Assembly: GCA_017499595.2 (NCBI GenBank)
Contig: CM039001.1
Location: 3,844,001 to 3,908,000, forward strand
DNA from: Psilocybe cubensis
Taxonomy: Eukaryota
Direction: 5' to 3'
Length of the DNA: 64,000 bases
Both the position numbers and the translations under genes were made by a program. Below are positions 13,714-47,000 of the stretch, piece by piece. Every line of letters starts with the position of its first letter. The stretch's first letter is position 1. Under the pieces are notes generated by a model that saw only the letters and a list, made by a program, of their open reading frames with translations, was not told the origin of the DNA and ran no database searches.

Positions 13714-14461
13714 TTAAGTAGTCGAGCACGCCAAAGATGTCGCTGAGCGTCCTAGTGAACTGCGTCGTGATGGGCACGACTTTTGCCTGGCGAGGTGACG
13801 CACATGGACGACAATGCTCTCGTCTTTTCTGTGCCGCTCCGCCGCGAAACGGAGGTGAAACAGTTGTAGAAGTAGCCTAAGTGAAGTGGCAGCCAACCAG
13901 AGATGTCAGTAGGAATCGTTAGTGTTCGGGATAGGAGATGGGCTATACTATGTAAGTTACTACAGAAAATTAGGTAGACAGAACGAAACATACCTGTGTA
14001 GAACAAGAGGAAGGAAATGGTGAAACGAACGACTTGAGTGAGAATCGTGTGCGTCTAATCGCATGGTTAGCAAACGGCGGGTACACTGGAGTTGCGACTT
14101 ACCAGACATGCTTCGAAACTTTTGCGATGTCTTGTTCGCTGACCTGTATCTGCGCTGAATGACTGACCCAATATACAACACTGTGCAGAAAATTGTGTTA
14201 CTTACGGCGAGCGTAGAGATCTCATACATGCTTAACATCTGTGTTGGCACTTCGATTACACCTCACGCACAATATCATTCGGTCCCCATTTCGCTCCCTG
14301 TAGTAGTATTTGTATTATTTACATGGTACACTACGCTAGACTGCCTACATGGATAGCAGCGCTACTCGGTCTATATGTGCTACTTCACCCGCTAGATGAG
14401 CATGGTTGGAACAGAAGAAGAAGAAAGCGTGAGAATATGGCCAGCACGCCAACAAGTACCG

Positions 14462-14544
14462 CAGAAGTTCGATGCCGCTCATGCCGTCGCCAAATTGGTG
14501 ATGCGCGTGATTGGTGGCACGGCATCAGCGGCATCAAACTTCTG
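14462..14544. repeat. 83-bp imperfect hairpin; copies at 16834-16916, 32368-32450, 41873-41955, 44717-44799; half-sites at 15844-15879 and 30369-30393
   Basis: CAGAAGTTCGATGCCGCTCATGCCGT ... ACGGCATCAGCGGCATCAAACTTCTG. Confidence 0.9.
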
Positions 14545-15288
14545 TCCTGTATCATGGCGATTTTGTGACGGTGTGACGCCTTTCCACCTCTCTCTCAACA
14601 CTCACTCCTATGAAGCACGTCGTACGTAGAGATGGTTCGCATACGAGCTTACTGTAGTAGTAGCACTTTAGTGTAGACTCTAATACCATAAACTTAGCTA
14701 GCTGCGTACTCTAGTAATACAATTTTAGTTCAAGTGACATAGACCCGGCTTGGAAGGGCAGAGGAAATAGTCGGGTGAGCGACACAGAACGAGGAGGAAC
14801 TACAATTCATTTGGATAGTGAATTACGCAGAAACATAGGTGCGAATAGTATTTGTATTTACTATCAGGCACAAAACACAAGCCAAAAACACATTCTACAG
14901 CACACCCGCCGCCTCTTCGCCTGCCAGACCCGTATTCGAGCGTCACAAACATAGGTGAGGAATCATCTTTGCTATTAGTGCAGGAAACATATTCTACAGC
15001 ACATGTGCCGCCTCATTGCTTTACAGACCTCACTTATTCAACGACGCACCCACCTACATTCAAGAATTGAACGTTGAATGCTGCCATAACTTTATGTTTT
15101 GTACGACGCTGCCTACTGTAAGCACCCGATCTGCGAGGTACCCTCTTTGCAGGTTGCCGTTTTAATTTGGATTTCACGATATCGGGACTTGTGTAGGATG
15201 TGCACATGGCTTCCGTCGACTCTCCTGCTAATGCAACTATATGCAAGTCTATTCTCATCTGACACGAGTAACGTAAATATCTCATTTA

Positions 15289-15315
15289 CCCCCCCCCCCC
15301 CCCCCCCCCCCCCCC
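15289..15315. repeat. Poly-C tract (27 nt)
   Basis: Direct reading. Confidence 0.95.
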
Positions 15316-16442
15316 GTTGCTCTATTGAACCCCACAATTGGGATGACAGCCAGCGCTTTCACATGTTATTTACAACATCCTGATTTAATCAGGGGCTGCT
15401 AGAATTTTCGCTCATTCCGCACCTCGACTCGAGCCATATTTTTGAGAAGTAAGTTCAACCTTACACGCGTGTAGGCAACGCTCGTGTCCTTTCTGCCTCC
15501 GTACTAGTCTCTTGTTTGGTAAAGACCAATATGCTTTCTTACCACCTACATGAGATTATGAATCACCAGTTTCAGCAACGTTAAAAACAGTCGAGGTGTA
15601 ATGAGAGCACCGCAAATAAGCTGCCTTATACTGAGAGCGAGCTAGGGTATGTCTAATTGCACAGTTAACAAACGTTTGACGGTTTTTATTCGCTAAAACT
15701 ACATCTGCGCTAGATGATTGACCAGATATATCTCCCCGGATCCGAATCTGTGTTGGCACACTGTTTTATTTTCCATTGCTCCTCTTGCGTGTTATCATTC
15801 TGTCCTCGTTTCATAGGGACTACATCTAGTATGTAGACTACATGTTCGACGCCGCTCATGCCGTCGCTTGATTGGTGATTGCGCCAGCATCACATGTCGC
15901 CCAATTATCTTATCTTATCGCTGTCAGAATAGACAAAACAGCAAGAGATCCCTTAAGACTGCCGGCGCAGCGCGATGGCAGGCGCAGAGCGAGACCTGTA
16001 CTCGGATAATCCAAGGTGGCTTTACAATACGGATTGGTTTAACGGGCAGCCTATGATCAGATCAGAGTGGTGAAAGTGTCAAAATGAGTGAAGGCATTAA
16101 CAGCCGTGATTCATACGAGTTCTGAGAACACACCCCCGAGATTGTGTGGTTCAGCAAAGAAACAAAAAGATAATTGAGATATCTGGATATGAAGAGCTGT
16201 TTGAATTGCACCAATGCTAACGGAAGGCCACAACATATGTGCTTGTGGGACTCGATGAGAGCCATGAGCAATTCACATAAGATAAACACAGTCCGGCTCG
16301 ATATGGTGCAATCCAATTAAAACAGCACCTGCAAAGGGGGTACCTCCTAGACAGAATGCTTATCGTAAGAAGCATCGCAGAAAAAAATATGGCAGCGTTC
16401 TGTGAGTGTGGCGTCGTTTATTAAGTGACGTCTGTCAGGCGA

Positions 16443-17090
16443 CGAGGCGGCGCATATAGAATATGTTTTCCATACTAGTGATAGCAAGATGATTCTCACC
16501 TATGTTTCTGTGTAATTATGTGACCTCGAATGAAGGACTGGTGGGAGAAGAGGCGGCGCGTATGCTAGAACATGTTTTTGGTTTATCTTCTCTGTACTGA
16601 TAGCAAAAGATGATTCTCACCTATGCTTTTGCATAATTCACCAGCACATGAATTGTCATGTTCACCGGTCTTTGAATTAAAGTTATTATGGTGTTAAAAT
16701 CTACGTTAAAGTATCCCTACCGCTAAGCTAAATATTTGAATCGAATTTACATTCGACCCGCCGCATTGGAGAGTGGGGGTTGTCAGAGAGGAAGAAAGGC
16801 GTCACACCGTCACAAAATCGCCCTGATACAGCACAGAAGTTCGATGCCGCTCAAGCCGTCGCAACATTGGTGATGTGCGTGATTGGTGGCACGGCATGAG
16901 CGGCATCGAACTTCTGCGGTACATGTTGGAGAGCTGGACATATTCCCACGGTTTTCCCTTCTTTCCTGCGCACCATCCTGGCCACGACGTTCGGCGGGGC
17001 TGGTGAACCTGAACCTGTCGAAGCAGCACGTTGAGATTGAGTAGCGTAGCAATTTATGTACATGGACTAGCGTAGTGTGCAATGTATATA
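16443..17090 (-). repeat. Diverged, inverted copy of the internal hairpin module (cf. 14330-15015)
   Basis: Shares GAGGCGGC, GATGATTC(C)TCACCTATG, GAAAGGCGTCACACCGTCACAAAATCGCC and the hairpin, with many substitutions and indels. Confidence 0.8.
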
Positions 17091-17670
17091 GTACTAGATC
17101 AGAGGAAATATTCTGCTACGAGATGAGGACGGTGACGCGTCAGAGGCATGGGGATCATATAGACTCTACCACCCGGTGCGATGTCTAGCGTACGCCCTGG
17201 TTTTGTAGGAGGTATGATGCTGCACATTTGGTCAGTTATCCACACAGATCCACCTTTAGTGAACAGAACATCTCTTGGTTGGTGAGTCGCAACTCCAGTC
17301 TACCCTTCAATAGCAAAGCACACTGACTGCTTGCGGACCGTCCCGACCGTCCCAAGGAAAATTACAGACTGCTTGCTGAGCGTCCCTGGAAAAACTACAC
17401 TCACTTATTTCTTACCGAAGGTGCTCGTTGCACCGTCTGCTTCGTCTTGCTTCACTTAGGTATATTCGGTACACTCTACATGCAATTTCTTACAACTATA
17501 AACTTAGATTGAGTGCGTCGCAGCAAAGGAGGCCACAGGGCAGCTCTTAGCACCCACAAGACAGCTCACCTCCTTCCTTATGTTTTTACTCCAAGGTAAG
17601 CGTTCATCTCATAGCCGTTTATTAGCTGAAATTTATCGTTTCCGTAACAGTACTGCCTAATCCCTACTGT

Positions 17671-18550
17671 CTATTCTGCATCATTGACTCCTGCGATGTT
17701 GGCAAGGGCAGCTCGAACCCGAGCGCTTTCCCTCCTCCCCTCGACACGACGATGTGCCTCCGCCCTATATTTCAGCTTCAACTTCAACACGCTATGAACT
17801 GGCCAACATTTATCGTAATCCCTGAGAACCGGCCAACGCCTAGTTGCCTACCACGTGTGTCAGCCTTGCTTTTGAGTAGTAAAACAAACTGGTAATTACC
17901 TCTTGACATATTGCTTCAATTTTTTCCTTTTTCTGAGATCTGTAGCTTTTACTCATATCCAGCGACCTCCTTGCTTCTCGGGTGATGTATCCCTACGGAC
18001 AAAATCAAGGCATCAGTCAAGTATGGTGAGCCACTATTGATTTACATACCACCATATCTCCTATATCTTCCTCAGACCAGTGGAAGTCGTCCCTCAGGAC
18101 TGTCTGGATATTAAACCCACCACTTCCCCGACGGCCAGGTTCTCCCTTTGGCTTCTTATACATTTCGCCTCCTGGGACCGGCGAAGTCACGCGAGGATGA
18201 GAAGGCCCCGCCACTTGGAGGATCATAGCGGGATCAATGGGTTGCCCAGGATCGACCTGCACATGAGTTGCTGGTGTTGCAATTGAAGGCCCGATTGGAG
18301 GGACAGGTACGGTGTCCTGGCCTGAAGGTCCCTCTGCCTGTATGAGCTCTTCAGGCCCTGGAGCTGCGACGGATGATGGCTGTGGCGCGGCTCCACGCGG
18401 AATGGCGTGTCGCTGTAGCAGCTCTGGAGTCCATTGGATACGAGGGGTAATCTTAGGTAGAGGTTCTTGACTGGGTAAGAGGAATTCGATCCGGGGAGTG
18501 ATGAGGGGGAGATGACGAATGTATTCGTGTGAAGGATGCGAGGATGACAT
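17671..18550 (-). CDS. Element-encoded protein of unknown function (3 exons)
   Basis: MSSSHPS...KKPKGEPGRRGSGGFNI...W, then spliced GYITREARRSLDMSKSYRSQ and RDYDKCWPVHSVLKLKLKY...DAE*. Confidence 0.7.
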
Positions 18551-19180
18551 GGTATATGTCGAGGAAAGATTGTGCGTTTTTCTTTTCATTCACTATTTGT
18601 AGTTTCGTATTCGTCGCTCAATCATCCCCTTTGTTTATTCTATGTAACGTCTCGCTCTTCCGCAGACACTCATCCTCAGTGTGCACGTCAAATCTCAGTG
18701 CACGTCAAATACGCACCAATTGTTTCGCAAAGTCGCTCTGCTAGTGTCAAAGATTGTTTGATCGATATCTTCTCACCGTAGGGGTAACCATTGATCGCTA
18801 CCTATCATTCTTTCATCAATATCTATTTCAGGGAGGGCTCAAGAAAGCATCATTTGTCTCTACAATGAGTGAAAACCCCAATGACAATATTATCAGACAT
18901 TGAGCCTTAGTTATACTGAAAATGAGCCTTAGTTCCAATATGAATACGGTTTGGCGAAAACGTGACAAAAAGGCGACACGACTCAAAGGGAGATGTTATC
19001 TTTGACGAGTTATCTGTGACTCGTCAATGGCCAGTGCCAAGGGTGTCACAATGACTTCCGGCGGCGCTGGCGGTAAAGTACTTAAAGAGCAGGAGTTATC
19101 ACCAGTCGTAAACGATTCAAACCATCAGCACCCGCCATGGCAAGTGTAAGCTTTGCATCCTGTAGTTGTCGCCCGCTGAC

Positions 19181-20966
19181 ATGTTCGATAGGAGAATTTC
19201 GCAATATTCAGAACATATAAGTTGCCATCCATTCTGCCTATCAACACTTTATTGTTCTCAGAGGACGCTAGACTCTTAATATCTGGCGGTGAGTCTTTTC
19301 CTATCGTCAGTGTTAGGTAATCTTTAATAAGAACAATATCATACTTAGGAGATGACGAGACGGTATATGTCTTGGACACAAAAACGGGGGAATGCATTCA
19401 AACTCTTGAGGATGACAACTGGGGACAAATCACCACAGTTGTCTGGGGACAACAGGAGTTACCCAACAGAGAAAACGGCGTTGTGTTATGCATTGGCACG
19501 GGGAGAGGGTGTTTGGCGTTGGTTGCGCTAGACTATGATGCCACCGAAGTACTTCTCTTTCTCGTTTCAACTTCCTGTGTCCTTACATTCTGTATATCAT
19601 TCCTTAGCCATTCCCAGTAGGCGCGAACACATCTCCTGTATTTGCGTTCAATGACTCTGTCGAGAAAATGGCTTTCGACAAGCTCAACAATCGATTAGCC
19701 GTCACAAGTCACTCCGGTGAGATCAAGGTTTTTGCAGTAAACAACAGTAAGTACTCTTGTCAATCGCCCTAGCACTCAAACCACACGAATATGGTACTCC
19801 TAGCTTCCTTGAGGTTATTGTGGGCCGATAATATTGGCAAAGTGATCACCAGCGGCCTATTCTTTTTTGGGGGGTCGAATCAAAGCCTCTTGACCATCGG
19901 GTTGGAGACATCGGAAATGTGTGTTGATGTTTCTGTTTCCTTGCAATATATTCACGAATTTCTACCACAGGAAGTGCCTCGATGCTTCAAAGAGAGGTCC
20001 GCCATTATGGACGAAACATTTGATTGGTGGGATGTATGTGCTACTTTATGGAAACCCTCCATTATTTTGATAAATTTTTGAATATTTGACAGTGGAAGCG
20101 CGTCTCTGTCCAGCGATGAAACGTTGCTTCTTGTAGACAACCTTGCTACCGGTAACTTCGACGTCTATCAGATCGCCGACAACTCCCCTCTTCGTTCCCT
20201 GCCAATAGGCTCGACCCGTCGATTTTCCAAGCAATGCGCCTTCTTTGAAGGTTCGAAAATAGCAGTTTGCGGCAGTGACACCAATAAAGTTTTCATTGTG
20301 GATGTCGCAAACAACTATGTTGTTCAGACACTGACAACATGTCGAGGTTCGACTTTTCGCTTACCCCCGCATTTCAGTTTATTAATTTGTGGACTTAGGT
20401 ACTTACATGACACAAACGGTCTGTGTTACTCCATCGTCATCGCGCAACGTCTTTGTCGCCGCCGCATGTCGTGGCTATGTATATATCTGGGAAAAATCAA
20501 CTCCTCAAGTCCAGGTAAATGTTCGCGCAGATGACCCTCCCCCTTCGAGGTACCGTCGCGTTGGATCCGCTATTTTGCCTTACCTGGGATTTGCTGTCGC
20601 TGGTACTGTCGGCCATTGGTTACCACACGCCTGGAAGGTGAGCAGCTTACAATCCTTTTGGCATTTGACAAACTAATGATATTCAAGTTGGGCCAAGACA
20701 TAATCATGAAGACTGCTGATTATCTCATCCAGAATGGCGCAGATAGGACGATGGAACTTCCAAGAGAAGCTGTTGACAAAATCTTCGAGATGGCGGCAGC
20801 GGCCTCGAGGGCTTTGGATATGTCGTCGGCACTGGTGTCGTCGAGGACTCTCGACATGGCTGCTATTGCTACAACAACATACACGGCTGCTACTGCGACT
20901 GCTACGATGACATCCCCTTCTGCTACCTCTCTTTTTGACATGGCAGCAGCAGCGGCTGGCCATTAG
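19181..20966 (+). CDS. WD40-repeat (beta-propeller) protein, multi-exon
   Basis: INTLLFSEDARLLISGGDDETVYVLDTKTGECIQTL, VEKMAFDKLNNRLAVTSHSGEIKVF, IAVCGSDTNKVFIVDV; GT-AG introns. Confidence 0.8.
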
Positions 20967-21114
20967 AATCTGCATCTGCGTATCCTTCTAATTTGAAACG
21001 TGCCCTAGATTTCTTTTGTACATTTATGATATCGGATAATGACATTTTGCTGAGTAACCTGACTACATGCATCGAAGCTATGATCTACACAGTTTTCCAT
21101 TATGTTCTCAGTGG

Positions 21115-24100
21115 TCAAAGAATTTGCCTATCTACAGGTCGGAGTCGGGATAAAGATACACATACAGCGACGTCTCTATCTTCCCATGGGATGATACATT
21201 TGGCAAAGTGTCCTTCTACAGCTGAAAAAGGAAGGACTTCGAGGATATCTTGGACGTCGGTTCCCCATAGTTTGGCACGAAAATGAACCCACGGGATATA
21301 AGGATCGTATTTGACCCCCGCTTCTTGGTATCGATTAACCACAAACCATATATCATCCCTAAGTACTTTTTTAGGAAACTTGAGGACATTCTTGATACGG
21401 TAGGGCACATTTGACGCATTGAGGACCCCGCTATTGCCTTCATGTACGTCCCAAGATGTATAAGATATCCGACCAACGCGATAACGGTTTGTATACATTG
21501 CCCGCGCGGGCACGGTTGTCACACCATACCGTAAAAATGCCCGAGTAATGTCCATCTTTAACACCACCGCACGTCGATCATCGTATGGGATGGCTTCTTC
21601 TTGAAGATCTTCTTCGCTTTCCTCGTCGTCTGTCTCAGTGTCATCGTCGGCCTCAGCATTTGCGACATCGATTGTCTCTGCTTCTCCTGCGAGTATGTAC
21701 TGTCCTTGGGGCATCACCAACTTGCGAAAGATCGGCCAACAGTCCCGAATAGCTTGTGGACATCCTGGTCTTTGAAAAATTGCCATAAGTTTGGACCTTC
21801 TGTGCCAGGAAGTCGCAATTGTTTCCTCGTACTCGCCTACTATAGATCAGTAACCATGAAAGAGCAGGCAACAGGTAAAGCAAATTACCTTGCTTGTAAT
21901 TTGTGGGAATTCTTTGCAGCATCCCAATCATACGTTCGAAGGGAAACGTCCACCAACCATGAACAGGCCCATATTCGATGATAAACTCCCTCATATGCAT
22001 AGCCATATGATGATTAGGAACACACTGGTAGCTTGGAAACAGCCTTGAAAGCTCGGAACGGTATTGTACCATCAAATTCAGGTATTCATTGGCCATAGCT
22101 GGTGATGCGACCCGGGAAGTGATGACAGATATGGCCTCAAAAAGAAGCATCGTGAGGCGCAAAAGTTCTCGACGTGTTTGGGCAGGTTTCGAATGGTCAA
22201 TTCCCGACCATATTCGGATGAGGGTAACTGGGATGTAAAGTGCTGCCGCAATGCGCCATTGGTCTGATTTGAGTTTTCCACTCTTTGCGGACATCGACCA
22301 GGGTAACGACGAGACCCATGACGGTTTTACCATAGCTGCAATGTCTCGTCGGATGGATTTCATGTCTTCTGCTGTAAGTATCTTTCCCTGCTTGCCATCC
22401 ACTTCTGAAGTAGCCTGGCTTGACTGTGACTGGCCGAAATTTTTAGTTGTTAGAAGAATTGAAAAATTTAACAACGTACGGATCTTTCTTTACGCTATTC
22501 ACCGCGTATTAAACTATCAGATTGATGTTGAGGTAACGACGATGCAGACGTACCCATTGAACAAGCATTTGGGCCAGATCTTCTTTCTTGACTCGCATCA
22601 TACCATTTAACGTGTCCCGGCCACGATTGGTGATGGTAGAGGGTATACACCCCAGATGTTTACCAACAAAAACAAGGGCTTCTGCTGCGGTCTTCTTTGC
22701 CAACTCGTTTGCTACGTCGGCATCTTCGATTGGAAGAGGCTCTGCCAACCATTTTCTGATGATGCGTATTCCTTTTTGACCAGACTCTGAGGTTGGCAAA
22801 GGATTACTTTCATTGCCCTCAATGTTTTGTAATATAACGCTATCGCTCGATATAGGTGTTTGTTGTTTCTTCTTCTGCTTGGGTAAATCAGAACCGTCAC
22901 CGAGAATGTGCTGAAAATGCTCTTTGATGAGTCCAAGAAAAAGGTTATGCATCGGGTCTACAACAAGGCTCATGGTTGGCCGATAATAGGGCAATCGATG
23001 AAATTCTGACGTGCGCAATCCGGATTTGTCGAAAAGGCTTGCAGCGGCCTTTTCGGAGGGGGCTGCCTGGTATTTCCAGGCACCATCTCGACATTCGTCA
23101 TCGGTGCGCCATGTCCATTTTTCATAATCGAAGTTGTTGAATGTATGCACAGTTTTACTACACCAGCACATCGAACAGAAATATTCCTGATTGTATGAAG
23201 AAAATCCACCAGCCTTCCGTGCTGCAGGAAGATCGGCGATGATTGCAAGAAGAGCACAAAGAATAATGCGCCCCATAGCGTAAAGAGCGGTGCGCGTAAA
23301 AAAAACACCCACCCAAAACAGCAGGAAAGTGTCAACAATAGGGCGGAAGTATGGGTTTGCTGCTTCTAGACTGGGTTCATTGGGACCCGGAATAATACCC
23401 GCGAGAAAGATGTTTTCAGGTTTATATCGAGTAGTTATGGGAAGGTTGAGGCATGTTAATGCGATAACTCCAATTGAAATCTTCTTTCCAGCCGTAAGAT
23501 TACGCAAAGGATTAAAGAAATCAAAGCCGAGTGAAAATAGATAACGTCCAGTAGTTTCATTTCCGGATACACCGAAAAATTTCTTATCGCATCCCTTGAA
23601 GTTACGGATGCTGGAAGACTGAAAAATATCGTCCATGCGCCCATTTTCTTGAACAGGTTCGAACGTTTTCTTCCAAGCACCGTCCATTGCTTCCTCGTAT
23701 CCTCGACGCGATAACATGCCACCAAGCCAGTCCTGGAAATCGAATGATAGGAAGGGTTTGATGGGTACATTAATGGTCTTATTGCTGTATCTCTTTGGCC
23801 GGACAAGAAGTTCCCCACAACGATTACCGAACTTCCGGGCATTGCATCGTTCGCGATAGGTAGAAATATCGTCCTCTAGGGTTGGCTTGTAGATTTCATT
23901 GCACTTTGGACAAGCGGCATACACGATGAACTTCGAATCAATGTCAAAACGCTTGATTGCCGCTCGAACGTCTAGAGGAAACGAACGAAGAACTTGCTCG
24001 AGCCAACGAGGAAGGATTTTGTCGACAAAGATAGCCTCTCCCGTTCTTTGAGCGATATATTCGCACATGGAAAAGACAAAATAGCACCCACGTCGAGGAA

Positions 24101-24948
24101 ACCTCAATATAGCGTAGCAAGAAACAACCATAAGGTTGATCATCTGCATCGCGTCAATTATCCATGGGGGTAGCCAAGGCATACTGTATGCATAGGGAAG
24201 GAAGGGAAGGAAGTGGTGCCCTAGGGTCGATAGTTGATAAATAGTTCATCGAATACAAAGTGAAAAATAAACATGCTCGCTCACTTGAATCGTATAAATT
24301 AGGTACGCTATCCTGAATAGAAACTCGCTGGCGAGATCTCTTCGTTTGCCTCTCCTTCCATGTTGCCTCTACACGGTCTACATCTTCATTAAGTCGCTCG
24401 ATATTTTGGTGTGCATCATGTCGCAAAGATTTGATCGAGGCTTCCTTGCGCAAAGGACCGGATTTCGTAAAGTCTAAATCTCTCGATGCGTTGGAATTAA
24501 GAGCTCGTACTTCATGGCAAAGTTGAATTGCCTTATCAATTTCCCCATTGCTGAAATATTTCTCTCCTGAGATGTCAATGGTGTTGATTTGTTGGGCACG
24601 AAGTCTGGTATTGTCTAGAATATCTGCAATCAGAGCCACGATTTTTTTCTTCTGTTCGTGCTTGTACTGCACTTCCTTTTCCTTGATCGTCTCGGTGTCC
24701 GGGTCCTGAACAGATAAAAGTTGCATTGCTTTCTCCAAGGTGGTTTCGACCTTCTCCATGGCCCTTTGCTGCTCAAGGATCGCCCGTGATTCAAGATTCC
24801 TCTTCATCTGACCCACGCTTTCCTCGTGTTGGTGCTTTTTATATGTAGATGGCGACAATTGAACACCTGGCTGTCCTGTGACAGGATCGCGTTTCGCGCC
24901 GCACCCATGCACAGTGCACAGGCAAAACTTGGCTTTCCAAACCGGCAT
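21115..24948 (-). CDS. CACTA/EnSpm transposase (Transposase_21/Tnp2 family), apparently intact, 1202 aa
   Basis: Exons 24948-24285, 24220-22554, a 15-nt exon near 22490, 22429-21889 and 21836-21115 total 3609 nt in frame. Motifs FSLGFDFFNP, CLNLP..RYKPENIFLAGIIPGP.EP, DLPAARK, CSMCWC, VDPMHNLFLG, PNHH...H, FPFERMIGMLQ. Confidence 0.92.
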
Positions 24949-25479
24949 AGGTCTGTCGAATCAACCAGAATATCGATATCGATGTGGTAACGGTTAAGCA
25001 ATGATAAGAGAAATTTTACCACATGAGAAATTATTATGCGATCACGCAGCTGCAGCTGCAGCGGAGGCAATGACCCGGAGGAACTCGATAAGGTGATGTC
25101 GCCGAAACGCCGAGGCATAACAAAGGGACTGAGCGATGAAAGACTAGCGTTTTCTTTTAAAGCGCTTGTTCAGGAACTTTCTTCATTACCCTCACCTTCC
25201 AAACACCCAGCACAACTGAGTCTAGTCGTCCAACTAAACTATGTCTCAACCTTCCAGGAGTCGTAGTAACAGCAAATCATCCGTAACAGGGGCTACCCCA
25301 ATATATACCGCGATGCTTTCCCGCGAACACTATATAAAGGCTGTTAGCGCGAGATCAAGAAAGAACGCAGGGGTAAGTTGTCTAAGGATTGATTGAGGCG
25401 CATTTTTCAATGATACATTACCTTCTGTTAGAAGTCTGCTTCGAGGCAACGCCGGTCTCCTGAAGCAGGGGACGCTAGC

Positions 25480-26800: not shown

Positions 26801-26944
26801 AGTAATCCTACTCCCTCTGCACGCTGCAGCTTCTGTTCGAGGTGATCATATAAGTATATAGCAAATGAAGAATGTCATGTTTCATACCAGAATTTATATT
26901 ATCTTCACAAGACGAGGTGATGGTAGAGAAATACCAAAAACAGG

Positions 26945-34380: not shown

Positions 34381-35935
34381 CTACTCCCCGAAAAATGGTT
34401 TTGCATCTTTCATTTTCAAGAGCGCTATATCATAACGAGATAAGCAGGCCCGCCAAGAAGAATAGTAATAATTTTCTGGACGCTGATCTGGAGCTGGTTG
34501 ATAACCTTCCCGTGCGGATTGTAGTCTTCTGCGTTTAAGGGGTCGGCTACCTGGTCGTCTGGTTCCATTGACGCTTGTAGCCGGTCGCAGGCTATCAGCG
34601 ATCTTTAATGGAGTCAGGAGCTTTGGGTTGCGCCATTGCGTCAAAAGGACGACTGTGGAATCTTCTCCGTCTGTTTCGTCTTCGCTCATTCCATCTTCGC
34701 CAAGTGTCAAGACGACATCTGCAATATCATGACGACCGGCATCTATGCAGTTACTATAACGGTCCACATACAACTTCTCCGACATTAGCAAAGAAATTGT
34801 GTAAGTGTAAGGAAACAGATATTGACATACATTACGTTGCCTAGTGCGGCGCCGCTTCCTGCGATTGGCATTTAGACGTTCCTCCCTTACGCGATCGAAA
34901 CATTGTTCGCTGGTTTCTCCTGGCCTTGGAACGATGGAAATCAATTTCTCACGAAACATTTGCACTCTTGCCATGAAGTGTTCCTTGATTTGATCGGCAG
35001 TAGCATTAAGATTGCTGTGTAATCGCAAGAACTGTTCAGCAAAGAGGTCCGCAAGATAAGCGTTCCATTTCACTTTCACTTGGTCGAAGTGAAGTTGAAG
35101 AGGTTCCAATGGTGGGGGGTCTCGTAGCGAATTCTCGAACTTATCTACTTCGGCTGGTGATGCAATGTGAATGGAATCCATTATGAAGATGTCGTCATCT
35201 TCGGATATTCCGAGGAGATATTGTTGTAACTGCCGGCTGGCATTCTAAAAAATCATATTCAGTCAATGGATGATGTGGAGGCGAAAAGAATACTACTAGA
35301 ATAAGAACTCTGTCCACTGAGCGGGGACGAACAGGACCAGCTTGCTTGTAAGGAGAGTAAGGTTTCCTGTTTGGAATCCTCCTACGAGGGGTTGCAGGTT
35401 GTGTATTTGCATTAGACCGAAGTTCTTGCACGTCCAAAACGACGCCTCTCACATCACTCGACAGAGTGCTTAGCGTATTCAATATTCTTTCTTGAAAAGC
35501 ACGTTCAGCAGCAGATACTGAGGCAACAGGAGGAACAGGAGTGACAGGAGGCGTCGAAGAGAATACAGAGTGAGGTGGAACCACAGAGGGGTCAGCGACC
35601 GTTGCCGGAGTATCTGCATGGAAGGCTGTCGAAGCCTCGACTCCTCGCACATCGTCTCGACCAGATCTGGGTATAGCACTGGAAGGTGGAGGTGGAGATT
35701 GATGTGTAGCTCTACCTCTTCGATAGTGACCCGGCTTTGAAAATCTGTTGGGTATTGATGGCCCTGGATTGGAAGAAGAGGCCAGGTCACCGTCTCGGAC
35801 GGGCGAAGAACGGTTCGCAGAGGTAGAGAGAGTGGGAGTAAATTCCGTTTGGTTAAAAAAATTTGAAAAGGTGGGTCGTTCTGCTGAATTTTCTGGCTCC
35901 ATATTTACCTGCAGGTCGCCGTTCCTATGGTTCAT
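34381..35935 (-). CDS. Element-encoded protein of unknown function (may be the 3' part of the upstream coiled-coil gene)
   Basis: A long Pro/Ser-rich exon, then exons with basic RRKRRRTRQR, acidic GMSEDETDGED, WRNPKL and PENYY..SW. Confidence 0.7.
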
Positions 35936-36310: not shown

Positions 36311-39300
36311 TCAAAAGATACAATTAGAAGTAATTACCGAGTCCGAATCTTGCGCTTCCTCTCCAAATTCGATGTGGTCAGCCATGGTGGCCTCTAATTG
36401 ACTGTTAAGAATTGAGATGGCTTTTTGAGAGTCCACAAGGTCGCTTTGTAAAAGCTCCAACAGTGACTTGGTATTACCATGGTCCTCAAATTCTTTTTCA
36501 AGAGCGGCCTTGACAGTACTGAGATCTTCAGTTGTTTGAGATAGCGCTGCTTGTTGTTTTTGAAACTCAACGGACATCTGTTGGTATCGCTCCCGTTCTT
36601 TACTAAGTGAATCGCGAGAGTTGGTCGCGGCTTGTTCCAACTCCTTTTCGAGGTCTCGAACTCGTGCGTTAAGCGTTTTAATTTGCTCACTGCGCTTTTC
36701 ACGCACAGTTTGGAGTTCTGAAGCGAAAACATTCTCGCGATGGCTTGATAATTGTTGTGCTTGAATCAATTTCTCCCTTTTGCTGTCAGACTCCTGGAGA
36801 CGAGCCTGTAAGTCACCAATGCGATTTTCAAGTTGCTGGGCATGAGAGGTTGACTCCTCCCTGGACTTCTTCAGTTCTGCAGTCTTCGCGTCTAGATCGT
36901 TGTTGAGTTGAACGATACGGTTCTCTCTGTCGATACCATCAGTTAACTGTCCCTCAAGCTCCTGAACAGCACGCGTTAGCCTTGACGACTCCGCCTTCTG
37001 ATCCTTCAAATCAGCATTGAGCTTCGCTATCTCAGCCTCGTCAGCGGTCCTACGCTGGGTAGACGCCGCGCGCAGTCTCTCCAGCTCCTGACCTTGATCT
37101 TTAAGTGCAGTTTGATTTCCGGACAATTCGTTTTCGAGGAGTCGCACTTGGGCAGTAAGCGTTTTAATTTGCTCACTGCGCTTTTCGCGCATAGTTTGGA
37201 GTTCTGAAGCCAAAACATTCTCGCGATGGCTTGATACTTGTTGTGCTTGAATCAATTTCTCCCTTTCGCTGTCAGACTCCTGGAGACAACCCTGTAGTTC
37301 GTTGATGCGATTTTCAAGGTCTTGGGCGTGAGAGGTAGAGTGCTTCAACTCTTCAAGTTCGGTCGTCTTCGCCCTCACAAGAGCTTCAAGTTCCGTGATA
37401 CGCTCCTGCTTGCTGATACCATCGACAGACTGTCCCTCAAGCTCCTGAACAGCACGCGTCAGCTTTGACGACTCCGCCTTCTGCGCCTCCAAATCAGACT
37501 CAAGTTGTTTTACACGAGTCTCGTAAGCAGACGCATTCTCGATAGAGGCTGCGTTCATTATCTCGAGCTGTTGAACCCTATTTGTCTGTGCCGTCAACTG
37601 AGCTTCAAGCTTTTGAATGTGGTCGGCGTCCAAGGCACCACGATCAGCGGATGACTGTTGCGAATCCTTGAGCGCCTTCAAATCAGCATTGAGCTTCGCT
37701 ATCTCAGCCTCGTCAGCGGTCCTACGCTGGGTAGACGCCGCGCGCAGTCTCTCCAGCTCCTGACCTTGATCTTTAAGTGCAGTTTGATTTCCGGACAATT
37801 CGTTTTCGAGGAGTCGCACTTGGGCAGTAAGCGTTTTAATTTGCTCACTGCGCTTTTCGCGCACAGTTTGGAGTTCTGAAGCTAAAACATTCTCGCGATG
37901 GCTTGATACTTGTTGTGCTTGAATCAATTTCTCCCTTTCGCTGTCAGACTCCTGGAGAGAACCCTGTAGTTCGTTGATGCGATTTTCAAGGTCTTGGGCG
38001 TGAGAGGTAGAGTGCTTCAACTCTTCAAGTTCGGTCGTCTTCGCCCTCACAAGAGCTTCAAGTTCCGTGATACGCTCCTGCTTGCTGATACCATCAATAG
38101 ACTGTCCCTCCCGTTCTCTTTCGAACTCCCCAAGACGAGCCTGTAGTTCGTTGATGCGATTTTCAAGGTCTTGGGCGTGAGAGGTAGAGTGCTTCAACTC
38201 TTCAAGTTCGGTCGTCTTCGCCCTCACAAGAGCTTCAAGTTCCGTGATACGCTCCTGCTTGCTGATACCATCGACAGACTGTCCCTCAAGCTCCTGAACA
38301 GCACGCGTTAGCTTTGACGACTCCGCCTTCTGCTCCTCCAAATCAGCATTGAGCTTCGCTATCTGAGCCTCATAAGCAGTTATTCGCTCCGTAAACGCCA
38401 TATTTGAATCCTCGAGCTCCTTGATATGGGACGTGTCCTCTTCCAAGATATTGGACCCCTCTCCATCGGGTTCATTTAGCAATATTTTCGCAGTTTCTGA
38501 TTCTTCAAGACTGTCTTCCACCAGAGATGAAATCTGAAGAGACTGGGATTCAACCTTTTTGTTTAATTCCTCCACCGTACGGTCATGATGAATTTGGAGT
38601 TCTTCGATTTGTTGTTTGAACTTTGCTTCCAGCTTGAAAACAGCTAGCAATGAGAGGCTGATGCTTCTGATTTTTGGTAGACTACATACCTCAGACATTT
38701 CGTGCTCTTTAGCACGGGATGCTTCTTTATGTTGGCGATCCACGTCCTGTTCGATGCTTAAACGCAGGTACGATAACATGAAGCCTGGGAAACGTACTCG
38801 TTTATAGTCTTCGAATTGGGATTGTAAGGTCTTATATGCCCCATCAGACGCCGATTTCTCTTTGGATATCTGGATGATACATTACTATTAGTACATATAT
38901 CTTTCCAATAATCAAAGTCTCAACCTTTTGCTCTACAACGCAAAGGTGTCGAATTTCAGCATCTTTCAAATCGTTGACGCTCGGCTCTATGCTCTGAAGG
39001 CGCTTTATTTCTTTATCCTTCGATTTGAGCTTCTTAGTCAACTCATCAACCTTGAATACAACGGTATGTTGAGTTAAAATTTGAGACGGCAATTGAAGTG
39101 AGTTACCGCGAACTCGAGTTCTTGAAGATACTCAGGCTCGACTGCAATTAACTTTCTCGACGATATCTCTTCATGATCACTCCTTTTTCGCTTGCCCGAT
39201 TCTTGTGGTTTGAGAATCTGGGACTGTAATTGGGGAGTCTGGGACGGTCCTGGATGATTGCGGGCGTCGTCGTCGCTGGAGGTGATATCCATTTGCTCTG

Positions 39301-39772: not shown

Positions 39773-40338
39773 ATGGTTTCTGCACTTGCTAAATATATCC
39801 CACGGACTAGGGTGAGCAATTTCGCGAGGATACTTGACGTTCTTCTTAAGGATTCCAGGACACCTCGCTATCATTAAGAGCGCGCTACTATGGCGCGCAC
39901 GCAGAAAGACCCGTGAACAAAGCGATACACACCCTTCAGAACACAAGCGGCAGAAGCCCCCGTCTCGACCTGGTCATGGGAGGGAAACGCCTGCAGCCAT
40001 ACATCCACGATGCTATTGTTTCAATTTCGAATAGAGGGAAGATTGCGCAGTTTCATGTCTTTGTCAAGAACCATTGCAGGCTCCCCCCTAACAGAAGCAT
40101 TTGGAGATGGAGAGTGCGCAATTGGAAGGGTGATATTGTCGTCTTTAAGAAAGGAAAACACCAAGAATTGGTAAACCTCGGGGGGCGCGACAGAATTTTA
40201 GCTGATTTTGCGACCAAAAGGTGAGGCCGGATGCCAATATGAAGTTTGACGACACTAACAACCCCTAGTTTCATTCAATCAGTGAATCAAACCAGGCCAT
40301 TCAAAATCCCGAAAAACCTGTTTTTTGTAAAGCATTAG
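39773..40338 (+). CDS. Small three-exon protein of unknown function
   Basis: Splicing gives MVSALAKYIPRTR/DTSLSLRARYYGAHAERPVNKAIHT...FHVFVKNHCRLPPN...WKGDIVVFKKG...FVKH*. Confidence 0.65.
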
Positions 40339-40614
40339 CCTGCATGAAAGCACCGACAACGAATCCACAGACCAGCGGTGCACAAAGACTGTCTGCGTTA
40401 GTAGACTTCGTGTTATCTTTGGTCACACTTGCACGATAGCATTCGGTCGTCATTTCATAGCAGAAAAGTCCCCCGTAGTACTGTTGTTTACGTTGTACGC
40501 TACGGTAGACTATTGCTGCGCTTTTTCGGTCTGTATGTGGTACTTCACCCTCCAGATGTCCATTCTGCGGAGGGCCCGCCCTTGCGGATGATGGCTAGTA
40601 TCTCGGGCGTAAGT

Positions 40615-41995
40615 ATAGCGTGCTAAGGAGAAGTTGTAGATCAAAACCTGGTGCTTAAGAAAGAGAGACAGAAGACGAAAAACGTACTCTCGCGAAATGA
40701 TGACCTTCTGTATATGTCATGGTTTGCCCTAAAACGTTGATGCAACCGATGGAAGCAACTCTGTGTGAGGAGTGAGTACTGTGCGCAGCCGTCTTCGTTC
40801 AGCCACGTACATTAATGTTGCCCCAGTTTCCCGCTCGAGCCTACACGTCTCCACGACTGAAGTACATGCGTTCGTGTCGGGCGACGATGGACCCCTCGCT
40901 GGCCATCCAGGTTCGACGACTTGCTAGCCAAAGTTTGGATGTGGCAAATCAGTGGAAGCGTCAAGGTAAGTGAACCTGCTACTTACTTGATTGGTATTTT
41001 ATCGTGCACTCTCAGCGATGCTCGTTCTGCACAGAGAGAAGGATGCGAATGTCATCCACCTGCGCAATGTGCATGGAGGATATGGGAATCAGGGTCTGTC
41101 AGGTATATCAGCGAATGCCATGGGACATGCGACGTAAACAGACTTACCCAGTCATACGTCTGCGTATACGCGCTCTACACATCATGCAATGCAATTCTGA
41201 TAACCTATTCCCATCCAGAGGGCCCTATCCGTGCGAAAGGGGTTGTGGAGTTGAGTTGGAAGGAACACCGGTATCCGAACGATGACAAGTCCGGGATCTT
41301 GTTTGCTTAATAGCGCATAGTGCGGATCGTTGGTGTTCGGGATAGGAGATGGGCTATACTATGTAAGTTACTACAGAAAATTAGGTAGACAGAACGAAAC
41401 ATACCTGTGTAGAACAAGAGGAAGGAAATGGTGAAACGAACGACTTGAGTGAGAATCGTGTGCGTCTAATCGCATGGTTAGCAAACGGCGGGTACACTGG
41501 AGTTGCGACTTACCAGACATGCTTCGAAACTTTTGCGATGTCTTGTTCGCTGACCTGTATCTGCGCTGAATGACTGACCCAATATACAACACTGTGCAGA
41601 AAATTGTGTTACTTACGGCGAGCGTAGAGATCTCATACGTGCTTAACATCTGTGTTGGCACTTCGATTACACCTCACGCACAATATCATTCGGTCCCCAT
41701 TTCGCTCCCTGTAGTAGTATTTGTATTATTTACATGGTACACTACGCTAGACTGCCTACATGGATAGCAGCGCTACTCGGTCTATATGTGCTACTTCACC
41801 CGCTAGATGAGCATGGTTGGAACAGAAGAAGAAGAAAGCGTGAGAATATGGCCAGCACGCCAACAAGTACCGCAGAAGTTCGATGCCGCTCATGCCGTCG
41901 CCAAATTGGTGATGCGCGTGATTGGTGGCACGGCATCAGCGGCATCAAACTTCTGTCCTGTATCATGGCGATTTTGTGACGGTGTGACGCCTTTC
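40615..41995 (+). repeat. Right arm of the nested ~1.4-kb inverted repeat
   Basis: Reverse complement of 32328-33732. 41333-41995 also directly repeats 13922-14584. Confidence 0.93.
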
Positions 41996-42360
41996 ATCCT
42001 GTCCCTCAAATGCGGCGCGTTGTATCGTATGTAAATTGGTTAAATGATGGACACAATTCATGTGCTAGTATTATACGGAAGCGTAGGTCAGAACTGTATT
42101 TGCTATCAGCGGAGAGAAAATAGTGTTTCCATTCATGATACGTTATTGATCCATCCACCGAAAATGAGTTTAAAATAGAAAATGAAGTCTGGTAGATAAG
42201 TCCCCGCTTTCATACCGTATTGAATCTTCCAGCATCCCATCCAAATAATCGACTTCAAAATATCCAGGCATATGACCCCGCGTACACTTAGGAGTTCCCC
42301 CAGATTTTCCAGCCGACGGACTCGCATTTCCCTTTTCTTTGAACGAAAAGAGCACATTCT

Positions 42361-42639
42361 TTAACGCATCCTTGACCTACGAGAATGTTCGTCACGATAC
42401 TTGTAAGGACAATCAAGAAAAACACTTACAGCGAGGTATGGCCAAAATATTAATGAGTGATCCACCTCCAAGTGTTCTCCCTGTTGCGAAAGAAACCGCG
42501 AGCGTCGGATGAACTTGATTTCTTCCGGAGGGTTTCGCGGAACACATAGGGGTGAGAGCTGAGAAAGTCGAAATTCGATTCTCGGAGTGATGAGTGGAAG
42601 TGGCGCTTTATTGAACATTTTTGCTATGAGAGGTGCCAC
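42361..42639 (-). pseudogene. Possible remnant paralog of the 17671-18550 gene
   Basis: Shares LPLITPRIEF with that protein's N-terminus. The rest is not obviously conserved. Confidence 0.4.
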
Positions 42640-44069
42640 AACTGGGTTTGGGGCAGTCTGTAAGTTGCGATGGAGGTGTATGCAATCAAGGATTCACGAC
42701 GCTTTATAAGAAGCAAGAACAAAGGCAATCTCCGCGACAAAATATCCTGACCAATCTTGACAAAGGTATTAACTAAATGAGCGCTTTATTCGCTCAACAC
42801 CCATCTGAACATAGAAAATGACCTACCAATGAGATATATAGAAGCTAGAGAAGGTCATGTATTTCTACATACCCACACTTACCCCGGAATGCGAGATTTT
42901 GGGAAGGTGATTTCATGATTTCAACTGGCGGAGATCATCAATGATCAATGGGATAATATATAGTTTTAATATCCACTGTCGGTCATACCGCCATAACAAC
43001 GTTTATCGTCATTATGACGGCGCCAAAGGGCGTGATTACGTGGCTGCATGAGCGACATTGGAATTGTTTGCTATGTCAAAGCGCTCCTGCGACAATGCCA
43101 TCTTTATCCCCTTTCCCATAACTCTTCGACAAAGAGAAACAAGATAAGATGGATCTTTGTTCAGAAAACATTTAAAAGGTCAATAGGTTAATATGTACTC
43201 AGTACGATATTTCCTGCTGTAAGAAACTTCATGATGCCCGTGACGAGGGAAGGCCACGATGTAATTCTGAAGCATATCGTCATCGTTTCGTGGCTGATCC
43301 GTACTAATCATTCCTACAGGTCGATAACCACAGTGATGACAATGACTATCAGAATCAGAAGCAAATGATCGAAGCAAAGTTGAAAGAACTAGTAAGTATT
43401 TTAGAACATCATTTTATTAAATCATGACAAAACTTTGCGATGACAGATTTCAATGATGCGGGCTGTATTTTGTGACACCCATGGTAGACGCGAAAACGAC
43501 GATGAAGACGGAAAAAATAGTGAACAAGACGAGCAAGACGAGGACTTGGATCCTTGGCCGGCGAACAGCAAACACTCAAGGCGCGTTCAATGGCGGCTGG
43601 GGCGCAAAACTAAGCGATCTCGAAGGAATTTCAGGCGCAGAATGAGGGGTGCTTCGCGCTCTCCCAACAAGCTCCGCGGGTCCGACTCCGACTAGTGGGC
43701 AGACAACAAGGTATGGGGTTGTGCGCTGGGCAATGGCCGTGTTAGACTGTTGAACGAGATTTTAAACCACCCACTGGCAGGACAAATTGGGGTTGGAAAG
43801 TCACCGAAGATTATTATATCAAGTAGAGCTTGGGTTAATAAATTTAGTATATCAATTGCAGATATTGATGAAGCGACATACTTCATAGATTGAAGAGAAT
43901 TATTAGACGGGAACATCTCGCGTGTTCGAGAGAGTAAATTTGGCTTACAGTACGTGTAAAACAATTGAGACTGGTGCCGCTCGAATACCTGATAGAAAAA
44001 AGACGGAGCCAATCTATAGTTGCATAAGCAGGAGACTCGACGGGAGCCATGTGCAAATCCTGTATATTC

Positions 44070-47000
44070 CAAGTCCCGATATCGTGAAATCCAAATTAAA
44101 ACGGCAACCTGCAAAGAGGGTACCTCGCAGACCGGGTGCTTACAGTAGGCAGCGTCGTACAAAACATAAAGTTATGGCAGCATTCAACGTTCAATTCTTG
44201 AATGTAGGTGGGTGCGTCGTTGAATAAGTGAGGTCTGTAAAGCAATGAGGCGGCACATGTGCTGTAGAATATGTTTCCTGCACTGATAGCAAAGATGATT
44301 CCTCACCTATGTTTGTGACGCTCGAATACGGGTCTGGCAGGCGAAGAGGCGGCGGGTGTGCTGTAGAATGTGTTTTTGGCTTGTGTTTTGTGCCTGATAG
44401 TAAATACAAATACTATTCGCACCTATGTTTCTGCGTAATTCACTATCCAAATGAATTGTAGTTCCTCCTCGTTCTGTGTCGCTCACCCGACTATTTCCTC
44501 TGCCCTTCCAAGCCGGGTCTATGTCACTTGAACTAAAATTGTATTACTAGAGTACGCAGCTAGCTAAGTTTATGGTATTAGAGTCTACACTAAAGTGCTA
44601 CTACTACAGTAAGCTCGTATGCGAACCATCTCTACGTACGACGTGCTTCATAGGAGTGAGTGTTGAGAGAGAGGTGGAAAGGCGTCACACCGTCACAAAA
44701 TCGCCATGATACAGGACAGAAGTTTGATGCCGCTGATGCCGTGCCACCAATCACGCGCATCACCAATTTGGCGACGGCATGAGCGGCATCGAACTTCTGC
44801 GGTACTTGTTGGCGTGCTGGCCATATTCTCACGCTTTCTTCTTCTTCTGTTCCAACCATGCTCATCTAGCGGGTGAAGTAGCACATATAGACCGAGTAGC
44901 GCTGCTATCCATGTAGGCAGTCTAGCGTAGTGTACCATGTAAATAATACAAATACTACTACAGGGAGCGAAATGGGGACCGAATGATATTGTGCGTGAGG
45001 TGTAATCGAAGTGCCAACACAGATGTTAAGCACGTATGAGATCTCTACGCTCGCCGTAAGTAACACAATTTTCTGCACAGTGTTGTATATTGGGTCAGTC
45101 ATTCAGCGCAGATACAGGTCAGCGAACAAGACATCGCAAAAGTTTCGAAGCATGTCTGGTAAGTCGCAACTCCAGTGTACCCGCCGTTTGCTAACCATGC
45201 GATTAGACGCACACGATTCTCACTCAAGTCGTTCGTTTCACCATTTCCTTCCTCTTGTTCTACACAGGTATGTTTCGTTCTGTCTACCTAATTTTCTGTA
45301 GTAACTTACATAGTATAGCCCATCTCCTATCCCGAACACTAACGATTCCTACTGACATCTCTGGTTGGCTGCCACTTCACTTAGGCTACTTCTACAACTG
45401 TTTCACCTCCGTTTCGCGGCGGAGCGGCACAGAAAAGACGAGAGCATTGTCGTCCATGTGCGTCACCTCGCCAGGCAAAAGTCGTGCCCATCACGACGCA
45501 GTTCACTAGGACGCTCAGCGACATCTTTGGCGTGCTCGACTACTTAAGTTGGAGCTTGTTCACCGCTGCCTTCGACGAGGAACGCTCTGATTCTCTAGTG
45601 AGGTTGGCGTATGGTCTCCTCAGTGATCTGGCCAAATACTACTCGAACGGACGGCTTAAGCAGCATTCCTGTCCAATTGGCTTACATCAAACTGCGATCT
45701 GGAAGTTGTATTCCAGATGATACCATGAACACCATGCCTCGGGCATGCGAGATTTTTCGAGGGTATTTTTTGTATCCTTTCCCTCTTACTTACGACTTAG
45801 GCTTAGGGACTGCGGACAGTGACGTTAGACGGGTAATTCGGCGGCTTTTACAACAATTATTTTTCTCCCTGTTGTTCGTATTATAGCTGTTGCTACAATC
45901 TGGCTAGGAATATTGCCATGCATAACAGTGTGGACGTCTTTTCCATGGGAGAATCCGCGTACGTACTCATCCGGGATCTCAATCTAATATCCACTTCTGA
46001 TAGCTTCCTCTATCGATAGAATTCGCTACGAAGCCCCTGGGCCGCCATCCAACAGCATTTTTTCTCCAAGGTTTCTTCACATCCGGCATGGTTAGCGCCC
46101 TCGGCAGACATATTCACCGGCCTGATCATCGCATCGCTCATTGTACTCATCTTCGTTGCCGTCTTCCTCCTCCGTGAATGGATGTCGCAGAATGCTCGCC
46201 TGGGCGTATTCGAAGAGGAAGAGCTCCCCGATCTGCCCCCCGTTCACGCGCCTCCACCGCAACCACAACTGCAACATCAACCCAGGCTCGTCCGCCATTT
46301 TGCGCCGCTCGACCCTGCCAGCCTGAACCTTGAGCGTGGAGGGAACGCGCCGCTTTCAATGAGCGTCAGATCGAGGCTCTACGTATGGAGGCAATGCGTC
46401 AGAATCTGGACACAAACATCGCCGTGGACCCCAACAGATGGCGAGCAGACGCCCAAATAGCCGCTCTTAGGGATAGGAAGAAAAAGATGAATGCCAAAAG
46501 CTTCAACCCACATCATACGGTACGCAATGAAAACCAGGGAGAAACGGACCAGGAGGATGTACAATTTGAATTAGAGCAAGCGAGGAAGAAAAAATTCAAC
46601 CAACATGTTACAGTGGCGCAGGACGGGGACGAGCCTGGGTTAGTAAGTCCCAGCGAATCGGACGATACAGAGGATGATGAGGACGATTTCCATGAAGACG
46701 ATGAAGTCGACAATGAGGGACATGGGCATGGAAACGGGCGTAGACATCGACGTCCACATCCTCTCCGACGGCCTCATTTCGAAGAAGAAAAAGACGACGA
46801 AGACGACGAGGAAGACCAGGCAAAGTTGTGCAGTGGGGTGCTACCACCACCACCAACCCCTTTTTGCGGGTTTTCGATTCGACTGTTGACTCTTTGTTTG
46901 ACTTTGCCTTTCGATCTGAAGCGGGGAGAATGGCGTGGTATACCCACTGCCCACTTACACCTACACCAACACCGTTTATCGACTATCGACCTTCACATTG

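Follow-up and report, generated by a model that had tools for sequence, protein, structure and literature searches.

Giant cargo-carrying transposons of fungi are so far known mainly from Starships, which use a tyrosine recombinase and have been reported chiefly in ascomycetes. The present analysis concerns a giant transposon with an ordinary DDE transposase in Psilocybe cubensis (assembly GCA_017499595.2, contig CM039001.1, positions 3,844,001 to 3,908,000 of the forward strand; this whole stretch of 64,000 nucleotides is called the window, and all coordinates are positions within it), together with the hairpin modules that recur inside it in alternating orientation. The only transposition enzyme found in the element belongs to the DDE Transposase_21 (tnp2) family, and no 'captain' tyrosine recombinase, such as occupies one end of a Starship, was detected. 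In basidiomycetes, Starships have been reported in Tremella (in a passage of PMC13066641). The KDZ transposons of Cryptococcus, as characterised in passages of PMC12510652, are likewise large basidiomycete cut-and-paste elements with inverted termini and target duplications, but they measure ~11 kb (five times less than the unit described here) and carry another group of transposase, and these passages mention no nested palindromes.

The closest likeness was found among CACTA/En-Spm transposons (CMCT clade of Kojima 2025, PMC12730594), which, according to the passages on this clade, share with the P. cubensis element a Transposase_21 DDE enzyme, 5'-CAC..GTG-3' termini, a 3-bp target duplication, a dense subterminal array of short motifs in both orientations and the capture of host gene pieces. 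The present element differs in its total length of 50 kb, its nested palindromic interior and its inverted termini of 10.7 kb, which take the place of short terminal inverted repeats of tens of bases; for this last reason it is called a CACTA variant, of unusual size. For comparison, En/Spm families of 16-20 kb were termed 'significantly enlarged' in a passage of PMC6431247. Plavaka A and B elements of Agaricomycotina occur in the same host group, and their domain PF18759 is present in relatives of the transposase; their termini, as given in the corresponding passages of PMC12730594, are TGT..ACA with a 2-bp duplication or CATCA..TGATG with 2-3 bp, whereas CACTG..CAGTG with 3 bp was found here. 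By the criteria set out in that report, termini and duplication thus fit the fungal EnSpm families and neither Plavaka A nor Plavaka B. The literature searched yielded no CACTA or Plavaka element of giant size that contains nested hairpin repeats, which does not prove that none is in print.

Ends and target site of the transposon

The termini, 5'-CACTGCGGGCTCC, lie at 4554 (+) and 54719 (-), are the only two matches in the window and agree with the 5'-CACT(A/G)...(C/T)AGTG-3' pattern of CACTA/EnSpm elements. They are bordered by the 3-bp target-site duplication AAC (4551-4553 on the left, 54720-54722 on the right). The insertion interrupted a small inverted-repeat element, whose right arm is intact (55336-55433, -) and whose left arm is split into 4533-4553 and 54720-54798. 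In reverse complement, 55433-55412 of the intact arm matches the left flank (4533-4553), and 55414-55336 matches the right flank (54720-54798); both alignments share the single AAC of the intact twin arm, which serves as an internal stand-in for an empty site. Because the duplication is shown against this twin arm, the 50,166 bp between the termini (4554-54719), a CACTA/EnSpm-type unit with a Plavaka-like transposase, moved as one piece. A reading made from the letters of the window without database searches (the sequence-only reading) had described one element composed of arm, core 1, core 2 and arm, which is borne out by the termini and the target duplication.

A subterminal region at 4554-4950 (+), with its mirror at 54323-54719, contains the heptamer TGTTTGA/TCAAACA in both orientations, with 17 occurrences in each of the two regions, against 10 in all remaining sequence of the window. 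Directly after this array, CGCGCG-type palindromes with stems of 20 bp form a GC-rich block at 4955-5050 (mirror near 54227-54301). Small inverted-repeat structures were also seen in the flanks of the transposon (4120-4483 and 62837-63182), one having 82-bp arms of 87% identity around ~210 bp and the other being a 350-bp palindrome of 87% identity; both may be miniature transposons.

Hairpin modules and the long repeats that contain them

Inside the element, the sequence-only reading had noticed a non-coding module at six places in alternating orientation, forming three head-to-head pairs that bracket both gene blocks. The module was recovered at all of them as five full copies and one partial copy, and the spacing of the pairs (2.0-2.8 kb) and the bracketing were confirmed. 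The copies lie at 14399-14607 (+, type 1; hairpin 14462-14544, box 14565-14584), 16771-16979 (-, type 2, the old lineage, with its hairpin, 16834-16916, flipped against the flanking sequence), 30309-30421 (+, type 4, consisting of the 5' box and left hairpin stem only), 32305-32513 (-, type 1; hairpin 32368-32450), 41810-42018 (+, type 1 as far as 41995, where the box ends, and from there to ~42121 a third diverged lineage) and 44654-44862 (-, type 1, within the outer arm on the right; hairpin 44717-44799). Strict alternation holds for these six modules but is broken by additional fragments, all on the + strand, namely a half-hairpin in the spacer of the first pair (15832-15880), an outer-arm fragment without module at the right edge of core 2 (40485-40560; nhmmer E 1e-4) and, weakly, a match to the arm model at 43028-43124. 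The observation of the modules is therefore confirmed; its interpretation as a site through which the element grows or shuffles its cassettes is partly supported.

The 20-mer box GTGACGGTGTGACGCCTTTC has five mismatch-free sites in the window, at 14565 (+), 16794 (-), 32328 (-), 41976 (+) and 44677 (-), against 0.00 expected from 100 shuffles. A 24-mer from the hairpin arm, allowing at most 3 mismatches, matched 12 times, comprising both arms of five hairpins and the half-copies at 30371 (+) and 15841 (+). Each hairpin spans 83 nt, with 26-bp stems and an asymmetric centre of 31 nt; the predicted folds of the type 1 and the 16.8-kb (type 2) hairpins have energies of -27.5 kcal/mol (z -6.4 vs shuffles) and -35.4 kcal/mol (z -11.5), respectively. 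When the whole 218 nt were folded, the purine-rich 5' box also paired with the pyrimidine-rich 3' end, which makes the module one long quasi-palindrome. The five full copies could be aligned over ~350 columns (alignment A1), in which a 29-nt block around the box, located in the 3' part of the module, is invariant. The hairpins are internal to the element, at least 10 kb from its termini. A coding reading of the module was rejected: two open frames cross it, of which the flipped type 2 hairpin stops one and rewrites the other, and no Pfam match was obtained. A scan of the whole window against Rfam gave nothing at gathering scores, and two microRNA-precursor-like matches on the type 2 hairpin, far below threshold, were treated as noise due to the hairpin shape.

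The type 1 modules are parts of much longer repeats. The outer inverted repeat (4554-15241 vs 54719-44015) extends over 10,705 columns with 99.69% identity (16 mismatches, 17 gap positions). Self-comparison of the window further yielded an inverted repeat of 13915-15241 vs 32997-31667, an inner inverted repeat of 1.4 kb that flanks core 2 (left arm 32314-33732, -; right arm 40615-42009) and a direct repeat of 1.6 kb (31377-32997, -, and 43725-45346; 1,622 columns, 99.26% identity). All four overlap in one 684-bp segment, a, which contains the module and is present as copies 1-4 at 13915-14598 (+), 32314-32997 (-), 41326-42009 (+) and 44663-45346 (-). Within segment a proper (13915-14584), four columns vary among the four copies, and identity among the copies at 14.5, 32.4, 41.9 and 44.7 kb amounts to 98-100% in each 100-column window, with 25 variable columns in total. 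Since the type 1 copies sit in repeats of 0.7-10.7 kb, only about two to three independent lineages of the module exist. The full type 1 repeat arm (~0.9 kb) is found at 14312-15222 (+), 31686-32600 (-) and 44034-44949 (-). Two proposals on the nature of the arms were tried and rejected: CACTACGCTAG as their CACTA terminus (it occurs at 14329 and four other sites, homology between the lineages runs 17 nt beyond it and the flanks contain no 3-bp duplication), and a role of the arms as ends of the canonical gene set, the 15222 side facing outward, where no terminal motif was found.

The resulting map of the window reads X a b / spacer, old arm (-), core 1, partial module (+), spacer / c' b' a' d' e' / core 2 / e d a / Z / c' b' a' X'. 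To its left, segment a is joined twice to X and twice to d, to its right three times to b and once to the third lineage; with two types of neighbour on either side, simple duplication alone is insufficient to explain the map. The proposal that the element grows through the module holds insofar as the nested repeats fit inverted duplication, but the duplicated units are 0.7-10.7 kb long and not the 200-bp module. The outer arms (4554-15190 vs 54719-44066) differ by 11 substitutions before 15191, all of them transitions and 9 at CpG, and by one 12-bp indel in a GGT repeat at 11765; the CpG pattern suggests that cytosines in the repeated arms were methylated and deaminated. A run of ~27 cytosines, at which reads seem to be cut, was noted at 15291-15317, just inwards of the left outer arm.

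The structure was checked against the raw Illumina reads of run X13 (151 nt, from another study) and against contigs of three other runs, covering the window part 11001-31000. Depths are the sums of both strand columns, added by hand, and their multiples are our own arithmetic; the reads are shorter than the repeats of 0.7-1.6 kb and hence blind to inversion isomers. Single-copy bins (15670-31000) had a mean depth of about 159, and the type 2 module, the transposase gene, the partial module and core 1 were all covered at 1x. The outer-arm bins (11001-13668) averaged ~298 (1.9x), whereas bin 13669-14335 reached 511 (3.2x; four copies of a and two of X predict 3.26x) and bin 14336-15002 reached 547 (3.4x; 3.39x expected). 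Loose ends fell exactly at the predicted junctions, with 206 reads at 13915 continuing into d sequence (the d-a junction, checked separately), 107 reads at 14598 joining a to the third lineage and 249 reads at 15191 bearing the variant of b found in copies 2 and 4. The same junctions were present in contigs of two further runs; run X10 contributed only short, low-depth, identical pieces. Long-read artefacts can yield near-perfect palindromes, so that the 10.7-kb palindromes might in principle stem from a palindromic chimera or from collapsed or expanded repeats. With depths of 2x, 3-4x and 1x where each was expected and with the junctions recovered from independent reads, the structure is real, and an assembly artefact is so improbable as to be excluded in practice.

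As the X13 depth matches the window's own copies, there is no sizeable family of further module copies at a likeness of at least 85%; the refutation that the sequence-only reading had named, a small transposon scattered through the genome, is not borne out at that level. Depth leaves little room for many additional copies, which argues that the repeats arose locally. Several local differences were noted in the same data. A stretch of 238 bp in the spacer of the first pair (15530-15769) was skipped by 74 X13 reads and by one contig of run X1 (depth 24.5 vs 73) and is an insertion/deletion polymorphism or a haplotype difference. Another 82 bp of segment a (14063-14146) were skipped by 38 X13 reads, which implies that one of the four copies is deleted there in that isolate. 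A contig of run X1 (2,937 nt, depth 26.8 vs 74) matches the 5' portion of the region around the KOW gene (29150-29971) at ~85% identity, and a second low-depth contig unites short pieces near 21.9, 23.2 and 27.1 kb; the genome probably contains part of this element a second time, in diverged or deleted form.

Identity between the old arm (16249-17094, -) and 14312-15222 is about 75%, and the 79 transitions and 64 transversions of the old arm relative to type 1 mark an old and ordinary divergence. Judged by its sequence, the 16.8-kb copy is the only truly separate lineage among the full modules, while some of the fragments are also old. The identity between types 1 and 2 amounts to 76% in the outer part, 79% in the 5' box, 87% in the 3' part, 42% in the stretch after the module and 74% in segment b. 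Across the module, 182/209 positions agree (own count), compared with about 75% for the arm, with 32 bp as the longest exact run. When flipped, the type 2 hairpin agrees with that of type 1 at 77/83 positions (93%), and when not, at 59/83 (71%), with flanks at 76-87%. An outer limit of homology near 14300 is common to type 1, type 2 and the 40.5-kb fragment.

Several breakpoints of homology coincide with the module. The 41.9-kb copy (copy 3 of segment a) follows type 1 to the last base of the box (14584 in coordinates of copy 1) and then switches to the third lineage, and two module copies end inside the hairpin. The copies of segment b are mosaics, copy 1 agreeing with copy 4 and not with copy 2 at 14847-14892, and copy 2 agreeing with copy 4 and not with copy 1 at 14976-15194. 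In run X13, variants are present in other proportions than in the window (~60% vs one of three copies at 14847; 94% vs two of three at 14976). The mosaics and the differing shares point to recombination and gene conversion among the arms and, in the case of the shares, to copy-correction that is still continuing.

Origin of the alternating arms

Nested inverted duplication combined with gene conversion, in which the module acts as an island of homology and a fragile palindrome, is the explanation we favour, with roughly even chances of being correct. The module would then be the best-conserved core (~210 bp) of a non-coding repeat arm of ~0.9 kb, made up of a quasi-palindromic hairpin followed by the invariant box. 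Arms in alternating orientation would have been built by nested inverted duplications of element-internal sequence, via fold-back priming, template switching or alternative transposition, and kept alike by homologous recombination and gene conversion. Since the module is the only stretch with ~30 bp of perfect identity between old arms, exchanges between diverged arms would start or end there, and its long palindrome is a likely point of breakage or template switching. The flipped yet unusually similar type 2 hairpin may have been left by an exchange through the self-complementary stems, and the two copies ending in the hairpin are what would be expected of breakage at a long palindrome. We infer a fold-back or template-switch origin of the duplications, inversion between arms and a passive role of the module.

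Elements of this scheme have parallels elsewhere. Maize Ac killer 1, attributed to alternative transposition in PMC13635294, is also a cut-and-paste element with large inverted duplications of its own sequence; the likeness to the P. cubensis case lies in the arrangement of the DNA. The 83-bp near-palindrome with copies cut off at its centre resembles the hairpin-induced breaks at yeast quasi-palindromes described in PMC3855049, the difference being that breakage is deduced here from two truncated copies. In favour of the scheme, it was also counted that the arms contain no cluster of short motifs like that of true subterminal regions and no protein family matches (10 arm open reading frames (ORFs) were scanned against Pfam). 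Other observations weigh against it. Conservation is higher in the module than elsewhere in the arm, and selection for a function could explain this equally well; a difference of ~25% between the old arms means that several arms have existed side by side in this lineage over a long period; no fewer than three old copies share roughly one outer starting point near 14300, in the manner of the end of a mobile unit; and two loose ends in contigs of other runs have no counterpart in the window, which indicates one or a few diverged copies elsewhere in the genome or on the other haplotype.

In one alternative, the head-to-head pairs (~14300-17106, ~30300-32612 and 41711-44961) would be nested copies of a separate non-autonomous transposon with long terminal inverted repeats, of the foldback/Galileo kind, in each copy of which one arm was later overwritten by the type 1 lineage. 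Pairs of inverted ~0.9-kb arms around unrelated spacers of 1-2 kb, two internal subrepeats of ~100 bp in the arms, the shared outer limit in type 1, type 2 and the 40.5-kb fragment, and the unmatched loose ends as a hint at other copies are all in keeping with such an origin. Galileo and foldback-type elements, as described in PMC4168063, likewise have long inverted arms that contain internal subrepeats, and they vary in structure through recombination between the arms; there, however, the families are dispersed and the arms form the termini of the element itself, whereas here the arms are internal to, and confined to, another transposon. No target duplication was seen by eye at 13915/32997, 41326/45346, ~14300/17106 or 14329, although the type 1 flanks were co-duplicated and original duplications could have been erased. 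Furthermore, the read depth is hard to reconcile with copies of at least 85% likeness dispersed through the genome, the spacers share only the recently duplicated segment c, and it is very unlikely that a single 50-kb element in a ~45 Mb genome would have received three insertions independently. On balance, we regard nested transposons as possible but unlikely.

A selected role of the module as a cis site bound by an element protein for regulation, replication or recombination, with cassettes inverted or exchanged in a directed way, was judged to be quite improbable. Its conservation above the level of the arm, including the 29-nt invariant block and the 32-bp exact run, would suit such a role, as would the flipped hairpin, which recalls flip-flop systems. 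In line with the sequence-only reading, module-bearing repeats also sit at every block border, and arm pairs occupy every border between canonical and cargo blocks. However, no tyrosine, serine or HUH recombinase was detected among 60 ORFs scanned against Pfam, although split eukaryotic genes could hide one; no sign was thus seen of the encoded tyrosine or serine recombinase of FLP/FRT-like and shufflon-like systems or of the Rep/HUH or resolvase gene of hairpin-primed replicons (parvovirus-like elements, hairpin telomeres), whose hairpins moreover lie at the physical ends. No heterogeneity from hairpin flip-flop at a share of at least 15% is listed in the X13 reads, and only 4 reads join opposite strands there. 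The stems, as read from the sequences, contain single-sided changes only and no compensatory ones. In a comparison set of 80 metagenome loci encoding related transposases (35-54% protein identity), a search with the nhmmer arm model found a homologue of module or arm in 0/80, and hairpins with stems of at least 18 bp occurred in 7/80, at no common position. Lack of the module in relatives would speak against the earlier interpretation, but at this protein identity the loci are too distant for DNA homology to be expected. What stands of the proposed recombination site is that several breakpoints of homology lie in or at the module (the lineage switch after 14584, the two copies stopping in the hairpin); the failure to detect a recombinase or hairpin heterogeneity and the mere 4 reads joining opposite strands speak against a dedicated one. 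That hairpin and box together form a cis site for an element protein, by which canonical and cargo blocks are inverted, duplicated or exchanged on purpose, was considered very unlikely, and the module is most likely not a dedicated cassette-shuffling site. Just as doubtful is transcription of the arm pairs into long hairpin RNA that feeds small-RNA silencing, as with maize Mu killer and Ac killer 1. The three inverted pairs with ~0.9-kb arms would provide suitable templates, and the 9 CpG transitions among the 11 arm-to-arm substitutions, suggestive of cytosine methylation, would fit; the arms, though, overlap neither the transposase gene nor the true termini, which are reportedly the targets in the maize cases.

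Gene content and implications

The transposase gene (21689-24930, -) comprises several exons according to a tblastn exon map, with an open main exon at 22509-24182. Its product matches PF02992 Transposase_21 (E 4.8e-9; 36.2 bits vs a cut-off of 28.6), and the 557-aa exon aligns to relatives over 96% of its length, with conservation of the C-terminal part. There are 291 such relatives, the best at 53% identity; the named ones are from Agaricomycetes, and many contain the Plavaka domain PF18759. Blastn and tblastx comparison with the 80 related loci recovered only the transposase and accessory genes; the few matches near modules were short, spurious and interrupted by stops. Accessory genes with tblastx matches lie at 17689-18514 (-; 7/80 loci), 19210-20496 (+; up to 18/80) and 34384-35437 (-; 4/80), and a conserved neighbour at 39859-40227 (+; 5/80). 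In L001, the closest relative, the gene at 34 kb is located directly upstream of the transposase gene; cores 1 and 2 therefore each represent half of a single canonical gene set, kept apart by the interval 25.0-34.4 kb, which holds the KOW ORF, the second arm pair and d' e'. An exact scan of metagenomes for the 20-mer box gave 0 matches.

The KOW-domain ORF (28151-29509, -; PF00467, E 1.2e-7), seen in 0/80 related loci, is cargo. Host-like pieces in the outer arm, assigned by Pfam, comprise Exo_endo_phos (6772-7939, +) and Mito_carr (7780-8702, -), and a weak Pfam match indicates a C-terminal importin-beta-like piece (13541-13876, -). An ORF of 822 aa at 36311-38779 (-) contains long internal tandem repeats (36500-38400; spacings of 486, 672 and 177 bp) and has weak Pfam matches of coiled-coil type. 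Among the related loci, several are flanked by inverted repeats of 70-290 bp (L062:336-7019, L048:1-13642, L052:6692-12967 and L015:1321-17982), that of L062 starting with CACTCCC, and L047, L027 and L018 contain clusters of other short motifs that may be subterminal arrays.

Of the two subjects treated here, the giant transposon is the more notable result: in a mushroom fungus, an ordinary DDE transposase of CACTA type is found in a 50-kb unit that moved as one piece together with pieces of host genes. Its interior would record growth by repeated inverted duplication around a palindromic repeat. Should the hairpin and box after all be a site for an element protein, they would constitute a eukaryotic, transposon-borne counterpart of bacterial invertible and cassette systems and would explain how a cut-and-paste element could reach 50 kb with inverted ends of 10.7 kb. 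If segments between the arms still flip, the element would lend itself, as a compact natural system, to the study of palindrome-driven rearrangement and of concerted evolution in a mobile element.

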